Both the position numbers and the translations under genes were made by a program. Shown here one piece after another: positions 32,047 through 34,108 of a stretch of 64,000 bases of DNA; the stretch's first letter is position 1; each line of letters opens with the position of its first letter. Below the pieces are notes generated by a model. It was not told where the DNA came from. It saw only the letters and a list, made by a program, of their open reading frames with translations, and did no database searches. The DNA comes from an uncultured Candidatus Saccharibacteria bacterium (GTDB lineage: Bacteria > Patescibacteriota > Saccharimonadia > Saccharimonadales > JALRHH01). The stretch lies in contig CAZLJP010000002.1 in assembly GCA_964559915.1 (NCBI GenBank), positions 2,423-66,422 on the forward strand, in the 5' to 3' direction.

Positions 32047-32613
32047 ATGGCATTTGAGGATTACCAGACCAAAGATTCTGTTGTTGTTGTCTACACCGGC
32101 GACAGCAAGGGCAAAACCAGCGCCAGTGTAGGCCTGATGGCGCGAGCCCTCGGCAATGGCTGGCGTGTAGCCTATATCCAGTTCATCAAGTACTGGGGCG
32201 TTGGCGAGCACGTCTTTATCCGTGATATTGGCCCTGTATACGGTGATTCTTTATTCTTCTACAAGGGTGGCAAAGGGTTCTATAATGCTGGTGACCTGAG
32301 CGAGCAGCATGTTAGCGAGCAGCAGCACAAAGACGCCGCCAAAGAGACCTACAAAATAGCGCTCGATTGCGCTACTAGCGGCAAATACGACCTAGTTATC
32401 TGCGACGAAATTAACAACGCTGTCCATGACGGCCTATTAACCGAAAAACAGCTGCAGGCCCTCCTGGATCAGCGAGGTGATACGAGCCTCTGCCTGACTG
32501 GCCGCAACTTCCCAGACAAAATGCTGGATAAAGTAGATATCGCCACCAACATGACCAAAATTAAGCACCATTTTGATGAGAAGTTCCTTGCCAATAAGGG
32601 CATCGACTTCTAA
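32047..32613 (+). CDS. CobA/CobO/BtuR-family P-loop ATPase (ATP:corrinoid adenosyltransferase-like)
   Basis: 188 aa; VYTGDSKGKTSASVGLMARALGNGWRVAYIQFIK, DLVICDEI and TGRN motifs; TACTAT box 6 nt before the ATG. Confidence 0.7.
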   Translation: MAFEDYQTKDSVVVVYTGDSKGKTSASVGLMARALGNGWRVAYIQFIKYWGVGEHVFIRDIGPVYGDSLFFYKGGKGFYNAGDLSEQHVSEQQHKDAAKETYKIALDCATSGKYDLVICDEINNAVHDGLLTEKQLQALLDQRGDTSLCLTGRNFPDKMLDKVDIATNMTKIKHHFDEKFLANKGIDF

Positions 32614-32654
32614 TCATCACGCTTATACTATAATTTGTTTTATTGTAAATAATA

Positions 32655-32684
32655 TTGTATTCCTGCGTGTTGCTGTTCTATACT
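32655..32684 (+). promoter_or_regulatory. promoter TTGTAT-N18-TATACT, 8 nt before the ATG at 32693
   Basis: Hexamers read directly; no SD in the gap. Confidence 0.4.
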
Positions 32685-32692
32685 GAGCAATT

Positions 32693-34108
32693 ATGTTCGA
32701 GAGTAATTTGCCGCTACCCTTGGCGCAACCACGCATCATGGGTCTAGAAACAGAGTATATGTTTATACCCCAGGTTAATGGGGCGGCAAATTTGGATAAC
32801 AGCTTACTTGGAAAAGCACTGCCAAGCGATATTCACATAAATAGTTCGTTTTTATCCAACGGTGCTCGGTTCTATATGGATACGGGTAGTCACCCCGAGT
32901 ATGCAACTCCGGAATGTTTGACTGGTCGCGGTGTGGCCATCGCCGCCGCTGCGGGTGAAATAATCACAGGAGCTACTGTAGGCACAGCACTCAGCCATGT
33001 ACCGAAAATTGCCCAGAACTTTGGTCTATTCAAGAGGACCGTCGACAGTAAGGGCGTCGTAGCGGGGGACCACGAGAACTACTATGTAACCAGAAATACA
33101 TTACCAAGTAGCGTTGCTCCACGCCTTGTACCACATCTAGTCAGCCGCATACTTTTTACAGGTCCAGGCATGGTAGATCGGGACGGACTCTTCTCCATCG
33201 ACCAACGTGCTTGGAGCATGAGCAACGAAGATATTGGCAGCACTAGCACCAAGGAACACAAACCATTTTTGTTATCACGTGAAGAAGATCACAGCAAGAA
33301 TGGTCGTCGCGTACAAGTTATGTCTGGGAGCGCCAATATGATGGGCCAGGCGATACAATTTAGATTCGACAGCACCTCACTAGCGCTACGACTGGTTGAG
33401 CACGGCAAGATTCCAAAATGGCTGCGCGTAGAAAACCCTGGCTACGCAATACAAAATATTGCCAGCGAACATCTGAATGACAGCCTCAAATTCAAAGAGA
33501 GAGTCAGGCTGGGTAATGGTTCCTATAGAACTGCAGCTGAGCTTCAGTATGAATACGCATCTCGAGCGTATTTACTTGGTGAGGCAGGCGATTTGAATGA
33601 ATACGATGCACAGTTTGCGCGACGCTGGGTAGAGATGAGCCAGGATGCTATGGATGGCAAGATTGATAAATGGAAAAATGAGATTGAATGGCTCACTAAA
33701 CTAGAGTTATTGCTTACATACAAGAGTGGTCGCGAGTCAGTATCAATCGAAAGAATGAAGCAGCTTGATATGAAATTTCACGAAGTCGTGTGCCTCCGTG
33801 CACAAACAATTCAAACAAAGCTCAAAAAGGCTGGGCGCATTGCATTAATCGCAAATGGCGGGGCTATAAAACAAGCTTGCTACGAAGCTCCCGACGATAC
33901 ACGAGCCAGAGTTCGCGGCAACGCAATTACAGCACTGGCCCGTGGCGCATTACCAGTCACCGCATACGGCAACTCACCACTTGTCCCCGAGTGGCTCCAA
34001 TGGCCAATTACGGATCGTCGCATGTTGGTGCACGCGGAAGGGCTACGCCTCCTGCAGGCCGATCCGTATTCTACCGAAGACGACTTCGCCAAAGTTACCG
34101 GCGCTTAG
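32693..34108 (+). CDS. Pup-ligase/deamidase family protein (PafA/Dop homolog)
   Basis: 471 aa; signatures [36 protein letters not shown] and FTGPG typical of the PafA/Dop carboxylate-amine ligase family. Confidence 0.8.
   Translation: [471 protein letters not shown]

Follow-up and report, generated by a model that had tools for sequence, protein, structure and literature searches.

The enzymes of pupylation are treated as a signature of Actinobacteria, with the Nitrospirae and a few Gram-negative lineages that carry UBact as additions, and they are accompanied by a Pup-like tag. The UBact loci represent Pup-like tagging with PafA/Dop homologues outside the Actinobacteria. In Corynebacterium, pupylation proceeds without a 20S proteasome and is non-degradative, and pup, dop and arc are kept. 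Single-copy PafA/Dop homologues are known from Planctomycetes and other non-actinobacterial groups, and the Patescibacteria are not among the phyla listed with such homologues (Hecht et al., 2020, PMC7947786). Here we describe a divergent PafA-like member of the Pup ligase/deamidase family that is encoded by an uncultured soil Candidatus Saccharibacteria bacterium (Patescibacteriota, Saccharimonadales). The assignment agrees with the ATP synthase beta subunit of the window, which shares 93-94% identity with proteins named Candidatus Saccharimonadales and Candidatus Microsaccharimonas (TM7). The gene is located in a stretch of 64,000 nucleotides (the window; contig CAZLJP010000002.1, positions 2,423 to 66,422), directly downstream of a gene for a CobA-like protein. 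Literature searches found no paper that links Saccharibacteria, Patescibacteria or the candidate phyla radiation (CPR) to Pup ligases, or Pup ligases to CobA, apart from one passing mention in an unrelated review.

The ligase gene (32693..34108, plus strand) is intact and codes for a protein of 471 amino acids (aa) that is a member of the Pup ligase/deamidase family of carboxylate-amine ligases with the glutamine synthetase (GS) fold. The protein matches the Pfam family PF03136 (Pup_ligase) with an E-value of 9.3e-72 and 242.8 bits (cut-off 25), and the alignment places residues 49-417 on positions 68-430 of the 441 profile positions. The motifs RIMGLETEY (residues 14-22), a 20-residue segment at residues 56-75, GDHENYY (residues 125-131) and FTGPG (residues 155-159) are all found. 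An earlier interpretation, made from the letters of the DNA only (the sequence-only reading), had listed these PafA/Dop motifs (36 residues in addition to FTGPG) and had called the protein an orphan PafA/Dop homologue; the motifs were confirmed, and the view of an orphan family member, here outside the Actinobacteria, is supported. The identical protein is encoded on an independent assembly of run SRR8931241, and thus the open reading frame (ORF) is not an assembly artefact.

Sequences in the PDB are matched over nearly the full length, with 142.9 bits for Dop (4b0r) and 121.3 bits for PafA (4b0t). The AlphaFold2 model, for which 11 clade members were used (predicted local distance difference test, pLDDT, 76; predicted template modelling score, pTM, 0.85), is confident and of full length, with low confidence at residues 418-445. 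Foldseek searches with this model returned only Dop or PafA as the top 11 PDB matches (template modelling score, TM, 0.66-0.75; 398-450 aligned columns). The TM score is 0.75 for Dop and 0.70 for PafA, and the next fold, YbdK/GCS2, reaches 0.42. The GS-like N-terminal domain and the small C-terminal domain are both present in the model, the latter corresponding to the approximately 70-aa C-terminal domain of the PafA/Dop architecture, and the closest fold is that of PafA/Dop. Approximately 70 columns, the catalytic set included, are invariant across the 11 clade members. Two other readings of the gene were considered and rejected: IMG/VR contained no relative of the ligase, either with the protein or with the alignment as query, which speaks against a phage-borne gene, and the PADLOC defence models matched none of the genes of the locus, which speaks against a defence system.

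Although the protein is clearly a member of the family, it fits neither of the two characterized types. Its score is 204.9 bits with the NCBIfam model for PafA (TIGR03686; equivalog cut-off 551.3) and 183.1 bits with that for Dop (TIGR03688; cut-off 492.3). Both scores are far below the cut-offs, and the ligase is therefore orthologous to neither PafA nor Dop. A word-indexed search yielded approximately 12 relatives with 40-53% identity, followed by a drop to approximately 30% with actinobacterial PafA. An exhaustive search with a hidden Markov model (HMM) in 1.84 billion representative proteins identified 4790 family members, approximately eight of which (clusters at 50% identity) belong to the same clade as the window ligase, termed type A here. 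In a neighbour-joining tree, type A is monophyletic (bootstrap 100/100), with another set of unnamed proteins as its sister group (92/100), and 100/100 replicates keep it apart from the PafA and Dop sequences sampled. The phylogenetic placement that the sequence-only reading had proposed as a check thus puts the ligase outside both clades. Since it is not nested in PafA or Dop, a recent acquisition from an actinobacterial host is ruled out. The PafA model outscores the Dop model for every type A and sister-group protein. Altogether, the sequence comparisons indicate a protein of PafA-like architecture in a separate clade outside PafA and Dop.

In AcelDop, the Dop protein of Acidothermus, the nucleotide-binding, Mg-binding and catalytic residues are Glu8, Glu10, R90, Tyr92, D94, Glu99, His155 and His241 (PMC8599861). 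Seven of these eight are kept in the ligase, as E19, E21, R59, Y61, D63, E69 and H127, and these seven are invariant or nearly so in the type A clade; His241 is replaced by Gln208, which is invariant in the clade. The spacer between beta1 and beta2 comprises 32-33 aa in type A (33 in the window ligase), 37 aa in PafA and 69-74 aa in Dop, and the 40-65-aa Dop-loop that precedes beta2 is absent from the ligase. The positions after the catalytic Asp discriminate PafA from Dop (Hecht et al., 2020, PMC7947786, Table 1). In the ligase, the 12-residue segment at this position reads D-x-G-S-HPEY at its core, a one-residue insertion with Gly-Ser that is shared with the corresponding 12 residues of PafA; Dop has DHAHPEY. 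Ligase versus hydrolase behaviour is governed by the alpha-loop of PafA and of Dop (PMC7947786). The PafA signature of this loop, H.WEG.SSATTRSRP, is not found in the ligase, where the corresponding 18-residue segment has retained nothing of it but the S/T-T pair and the Arg downstream. The model draws this segment as a loop rather than a helix, at low confidence (pLDDT below 50 at residues 184-187). We infer that the protein is an active enzyme, and a ligase would be likelier than a hydrolase.

The sequence-only reading had reported that pup, 20S proteasome and Mpa/ARC genes are missing from the 64 kb, and dedicated searches for them (Pup HMM, tblastn and Pfam) all remained empty. In the 64 kb, no stop-to-stop segment has GGQ or GGE at its end. 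When a UBact-type tag is sought by terminal motif alone, ten ORFs of the window end in G[QE]; none of them adjoins the ligase gene and most overlap larger ORFs by coordinates. An HMM built from 60 Pups encoded beside PafA genes, which scores control Pups at 1e-25 to 1e-35, found no tag of the PF05639 type in the window or in approximately 90 related Saccharimonadales loci. A tblastn search of the window with all ORFs of six Pup-proteasome loci, one of which (L018) was verified with Pfam to carry Mpa/ARC, Pup, PrcB and PrcA, returned the ligase gene as the sole match. Pfam scans of 48 window proteins revealed genes for replication, cell wall, ATP synthase, redox and restriction-modification functions and no proteasome, Mpa/AAA unfoldase or corrinoid gene, which also bears out the statement that corrinoid metabolism genes are missing from this segment. 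In the relatives, no Pup, proteasome or Mpa gene is located next to any of the ligase genes (approximately 12 loci).

The distribution of the ligase was assessed in 80 metagenome loci chosen with the CobA-like gene as anchor, 60 of which contain enough downstream sequence to be judged; ligases were called with a sensitive HMM able to recover all three ligase types. A Pup_ligase gene was found in two of the 60 loci, and the CobA-like gene occurs without ligase in the other 58. Of 52 loci, 13 have nothing in the slot that follows the CobA-like gene; elsewhere its cargo includes DAGK-like kinases, cytidine/dCMP-type deaminases, unnamed families and many singletons. One relative carries the CobA-like gene with a small hypothetical gene and no ligase. 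In three loci the same slot is occupied by extremely divergent ligases, termed type B (L087, 6613-8082; L114, 2310-3782; L125, 1036-2454). The type B ligase of L087 is 25% identical to the window ligase, with neighbouring genes that are 70-82% identical, and it has a beta1-beta2 spacer of 57 aa and a Dop-like D-x-x-H spacing. This suggests displacement or very fast evolution. The slot holds either a PafA-like (type A) or a Dop-like-spaced (type B) variant, never both. In pairs of the same genomes, the ligases are 25-53% identical, compared to 54-83% for the neighbouring glutaredoxin, CobA-like and glycoside hydrolase (GH) genes. In locus L006, the type A ligase is spread over two separate ORFs (6317-6589 and 6794-7639); this split copy would probably be a pseudogene, in keeping with continuing ligase loss in the lineage.

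Taken together, we tentatively favour the interpretation that the ligase is a functional stand-alone, PafA-like ATP-dependent carboxylate-amine ligase, which would be sporadically retained, fast-evolving and accessory in a minority of soil Saccharimonadales; of the explanations considered it is the most probable, and we hold it with somewhat less than even confidence. By analogy with PafA, the enzyme would bind ATP and Mg2+ in its beta-sheet cradle, phosphorylate a carboxylate and pass the acyl group to an amine. The carboxylate would most likely belong to the side chain of a Glu at the C-terminus of some protein or peptide whose gene lies elsewhere, and the reaction would yield an amide or isopeptide tag of a non-degradative kind. 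For this, the CobA-like protein would be dispensable and have a separate job of its own. Several observations weigh against this interpretation. Neither a substrate nor a modifier for the ligase was found in the window or in the related loci. The sporadic retention and the split copy show that the ligase is dispensable. Two residues that are invariant in all sampled PafA and Dop proteins are changed throughout type A: the Mg-ligand His of the RLHV motif is Gln208, and the Asp of GD[SA]N is Ser. In addition, the alpha-loop resembles neither that of PafA nor that of Dop and lies in a low-confidence part of the model, and the enzyme may have hydrolase activity.

Some of these observations would fit a small-molecule enzyme instead, one that makes or hydrolyses an amide on a free carboxylate metabolite (gamma-glutamyl or other) without involvement of the CobA-like protein, the tagging of proteins having been lost. 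We consider this unlikely, though it is the strongest of the alternatives. The lack of a modifier gene near the ligase in approximately 12 loci, the two substitutions in the active site (H to Q and D to S) and the loss of conservation in the alpha-loop, which binds the target protein in PafA, all point in this direction, and small molecules are the substrates in the wider superfamily (GS, GCS2/YbdK). Against it stands the retention of the whole PafA/Dop-specific architecture including the C-terminal domain, with TM scores of 0.70-0.75 versus 0.42 for YbdK. Furthermore, we know of no member of the PafA/Dop family with a small-molecule substrate.

A third explanation starts from the neighbourhood of the ligase gene. 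The sequence-only reading had paired the ligase with the CobA-like gene and proposed, as the second of two options, that the two proteins work together. The adjacency itself recurs in every ligase-bearing relative: a co-directional CobA-like gene lies directly upstream in 10 full and two partial ligase-bearing Saccharimonadales loci, which represent three very divergent ligase clades; the CobA-like protein has 188/189 aa in them. These are type A loci (L001, L089/L090, L004, L005 and L006; L002 is the same contig region as L089/L090 and ends just upstream of the ligase), the locus of a sister-clade protein (P0365) and type B loci (L087/L088, L114 and L125, with the partial copies L123 and L130). 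The proposed cooperation was not upheld: the CobA-like gene is a core gene that is mostly found without ligase, and the slot next to it is otherwise empty or filled with unrelated cargo, and therefore the pairing is positional. The adjacency reflects a fixed slot beside a core gene and is not evidence for a two-component system. The description of the CobA-like gene as the only co-directional neighbour also had to be corrected, since the run of plus-strand genes consists of glutaredoxin, a 164-aa hypothetical protein, the CobA-like protein and the ligase.

A functional pair, in which both proteins share a substrate (for example, an amide on an adenosylated corrinoid or nucleotide) or in which the CobA-like protein regulates the ligase, is consequently less probable in our view than a small-molecule enzyme. 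It would account for an adjacency that persists with ligases of down to 25% identity, and a precedent for regulation exists in mycobacterial Dop, which has the kinase-like regulatory partner CoaX (PDB 9cku). The two genes are separated by an AT-rich spacer of 79 nucleotides (32614..32692), and no terminator-like site was found anywhere in 31100-34400, which includes the spacer; co-transcription of the CobA-like and ligase genes is possible, but the spacer could also hold a promoter of its own for the ligase. The pair is further contradicted by the 58 of 60 judgeable loci in which the CobA-like gene occurs without ligase and is conserved like core genes, by the unrelated genes that take the same slot, and by the missing corrinoid genes of the window. 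In addition, related ligases outside the lineage (L171 and L172) have no CobA-like neighbour.

The CobA-like gene (32047..32613, plus strand; 188 aa) is the positional anchor of the variable slot. As had been noted from the sequence, it codes for a P-loop protein of the CobA/CobO/BtuR family: it matches PF02572 (E-value 2.4e-45, 155.3 bits) and the P-loop, GDSKGKTS, is intact. With the cobA equivalog model TIGR00708 it scores 121 bits, below the cut-off of 167.75. Its identity is 77-86% across the best 119 of 6051 matches (self excluded) and 71-83% in the 80 metagenome loci, and it is about as conserved as glutaredoxin. These values (71-86% in all, over hundreds of metagenome matches) identify it as a highly conserved core gene of the Saccharimonadales. 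Like CobA/BtuR of Salmonella enterica (PDB 1G5R, 4HUT), it has the P-loop GxxKGKT[ST], the KH.FD and GIDY/F motifs and the same length class; E128 of the S. enterica DE(L/I) motif corresponds to E121, and R161 of the TGR motif to R153. It differs in lacking the N-terminal approximately 20 residues and in its middle third (residues 56-102), which is strongly conserved in the lineage and not alignable with the S. enterica protein. By eye, F78 corresponds to Phe91 and is kept, while N80 replaces Trp93; we take Phe91 and Trp93 to be corrinoid-site residues of the S. enterica enzyme. Around the CobA-like gene, the 64 kb contain no genes that would point to the use of corrinoids, such as those for a B12-dependent enzyme, a transporter or salvage. 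The protein might still be a corrinoid adenosyltransferase, serving for instance a B12-dependent ribonucleotide reductase, or it might use another substrate.

A decaying relic of an ancestral system, without current function, is slightly less probable than the functional pair. The absence of the ligase from approximately 97% of the related loci, the split copy in L006 and the high divergence of the ligase sequences would be expected of such a leftover. The window gene does not look like one: the ORF is intact at 471 aa, approximately 70 columns including the catalytic set are invariant in 11 clade members, and the model is confident over the full length.

Cultivated Saccharibacteria live as obligate epibionts on Actinobacteria, the phylum in which Pup is used. 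An enzyme directed at the host, in which the PafA-like (type A) or Dop-like (type B) protein of the epibiont writes or erases Pup tags of an actinobacterial host and needs no Pup of its own, would agree with the much faster evolution of the ligase compared to its neighbours, its presence/absence polymorphism, the alternation of the two variants in one slot and the lack of an endogenous Pup in the window and in approximately 90 related loci, but we regard it as very improbable: the ligase is not nested in actinobacterial PafA or Dop, as a recent transfer from the host would require, it has no signal peptide, with the catalytic residues Glu19 and Glu21 located at the extreme N-terminus, no delivery route is known, and the active site carries substitutions.

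The locus is embedded in a conserved backbone with the order AtpB-AtpI-[VKOR]-glutaredoxin-[variable]-CobA-like-[variable]-P-loop kinase (AAA_33/Zeta_toxin)-SNase-GT2 (family 2 glycosyltransferase)-GH-GH-SmpB. The first gene of the plus-strand run encodes a glutaredoxin/NrdH-like protein with a CxxC motif (31215..31460; PF00462, E-value 1.2e-16), which is part of the backbone in 50 loci. Divergent from it, a VKOR-family membrane protein is encoded on the minus strand (30559-31179); this gene is present in some relatives only. Downstream, the ligase slot is bounded by the GT2 gene (34095..35090, minus strand; PF00535, E-value 1.1e-30), which is convergent, overlaps the ligase stop by 14 nucleotides and forms a conserved boundary in 39 loci. 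Across the 80 loci (L091-L170), the CobA-like gene is flanked on both sides (31460-32047 and 32613-34095 in the window) by hypervariable slots, with a rigid backbone around them; DAGK-like kinases, dCMP/MafB19-type deaminases and an HSP20-like protein are among the cargo, together with many singletons.

The slot upstream of the CobA-like gene contains a gene for a 164-aa hypothetical protein (31529..32023, plus strand), termed hypA1, for which no match was found in Pfam, NCBIfam or PADLOC. It belongs to a helical family of 10 members with conserved internal motifs and variable C-termini, which occurs without ligase in seven of the 10 loci; elsewhere, unrelated proteins are encoded at this position. 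A single-sequence model (pTM 0.23) was too poor for a fold search. As a Pup analogue hypA1 was rejected, given its unconserved C-terminus and its occurrence without the ligase. A second candidate for a modifier, a gene for 123-131 aa located between the CobA-like and ligase genes of deeper type A relatives, was not supported either: it is absent from the window, and its loose family also occurs without ligase and has unconserved C-termini. Small plus-strand ORFs located right after the CobA-like gene end in Glu in six of 16 distinct loci, with approximately one expected (L004, 5339-5731; L006, 5802-6197; L091, 3810-4319; L101, 5591-6016; L112, 1900-2493; L113, 4168-4623). Several of them have a loose GG[IL]P[VL] motif in common. 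Since a Pup_ligase is missing from most of these loci, a connection with the ligase is not supported.

Further observations were made along the way. PafA-like genes are present in metagenome-assembled genomes labelled Spirochaetales, Myxococcota and Deltaproteobacteria (L012, L015, L021, L049 and L080). In L021 the PafA-like gene is accompanied by a canonical Pup with a GGE end and by a Dop-like ORF; these loci are sporadic full Pup systems outside the Actinobacteria. In the window, the region 38001-44000 has a GC content of 0.41-0.44, compared to approximately 0.47 elsewhere, and follows directly after SmpB (37080-37535) and a tRNA-Asn gene (37672-37746). It contains genes for RNHCP and ASCH proteins and for a fusion of MazG and nucleoside deoxyribosyltransferase, and could represent a genomic island that was inserted at the tRNA gene. 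The gene for a C5 cytosine DNA methylase (57018-58271, minus strand) is divergent from the gene for a 445-aa protein with a MutH-family nuclease domain (58339-59676, plus strand), an arrangement that looks like a type II restriction-modification pair. Finally, a 132-aa SET-domain protein, which has a lysine methyltransferase fold, is encoded at 46267-46665 in this CPR genome.

A distinct and catalytically plausible PafA-like clade in the CPR, without a neighbouring tag gene or proteasome, shows that the family has branches whose substrate is yet to be named. A protein substrate would mean a new tagging system in ultra-small bacteria. The Pup of the host as substrate would mean a new type of host manipulation, in which a parasite writes or erases a bacterial ubiquitin-like tag across species. 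The case of the CobA-like gene corrects a conclusion drawn from guilt by association and calls for caution in operon-based function prediction in highly syntenic, reduced genomes.

Among the known systems, PafA of the Actinobacteria (TIGR03686; PDB 4B0T, 4BJR) shares with the ligase the Pfam family, the fold, the GhExE motif, the C-terminal domain and the DPY/DPF tail, together with the insertion after the catalytic Asp and the short spacer without a Dop-loop. The ligase differs from it in being only approximately 30% identical and outside the PafA clade, in the missing alpha-loop signature, in the Gln at the position of the Mg-ligand His and in having GSAN for GD[SA]N; it is encoded in Saccharibacteria, and pup, dop, mpa and prcBA are not nearby. 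The depupylase/deamidase Dop (TIGR03688; PDB 4B0R, 7OXY) has the same catalytic core and matches the ligase slightly better than PafA does, in PDB sequence as well as in fold, but the ligase has neither the Dop-loop nor the D-H-A-HPEY spacing. Corynebacterium resembles the proposed situation in having a PafA-type enzyme without a proteasome, but its pup, dop and arc genes have no counterparts in the window. The homologues described by Hecht et al. (2020, PMC7947786) are similar to the ligase in that each genome, of a non-actinobacterial phylum, has one divergent copy, which is approximately 30% identical to PafA as well as to Dop. These and the UBact loci are reported to include a gene for Pup-like protein or UBact and often proteasome genes, whereas no small ORF ending in G[EQ] adjoins the ligase. 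Divergent single-copy PafA/Dop homologues, the enzyme family and its chemistry are thus already known, and what is new here is a distinct tag-less clade in a new phylum.

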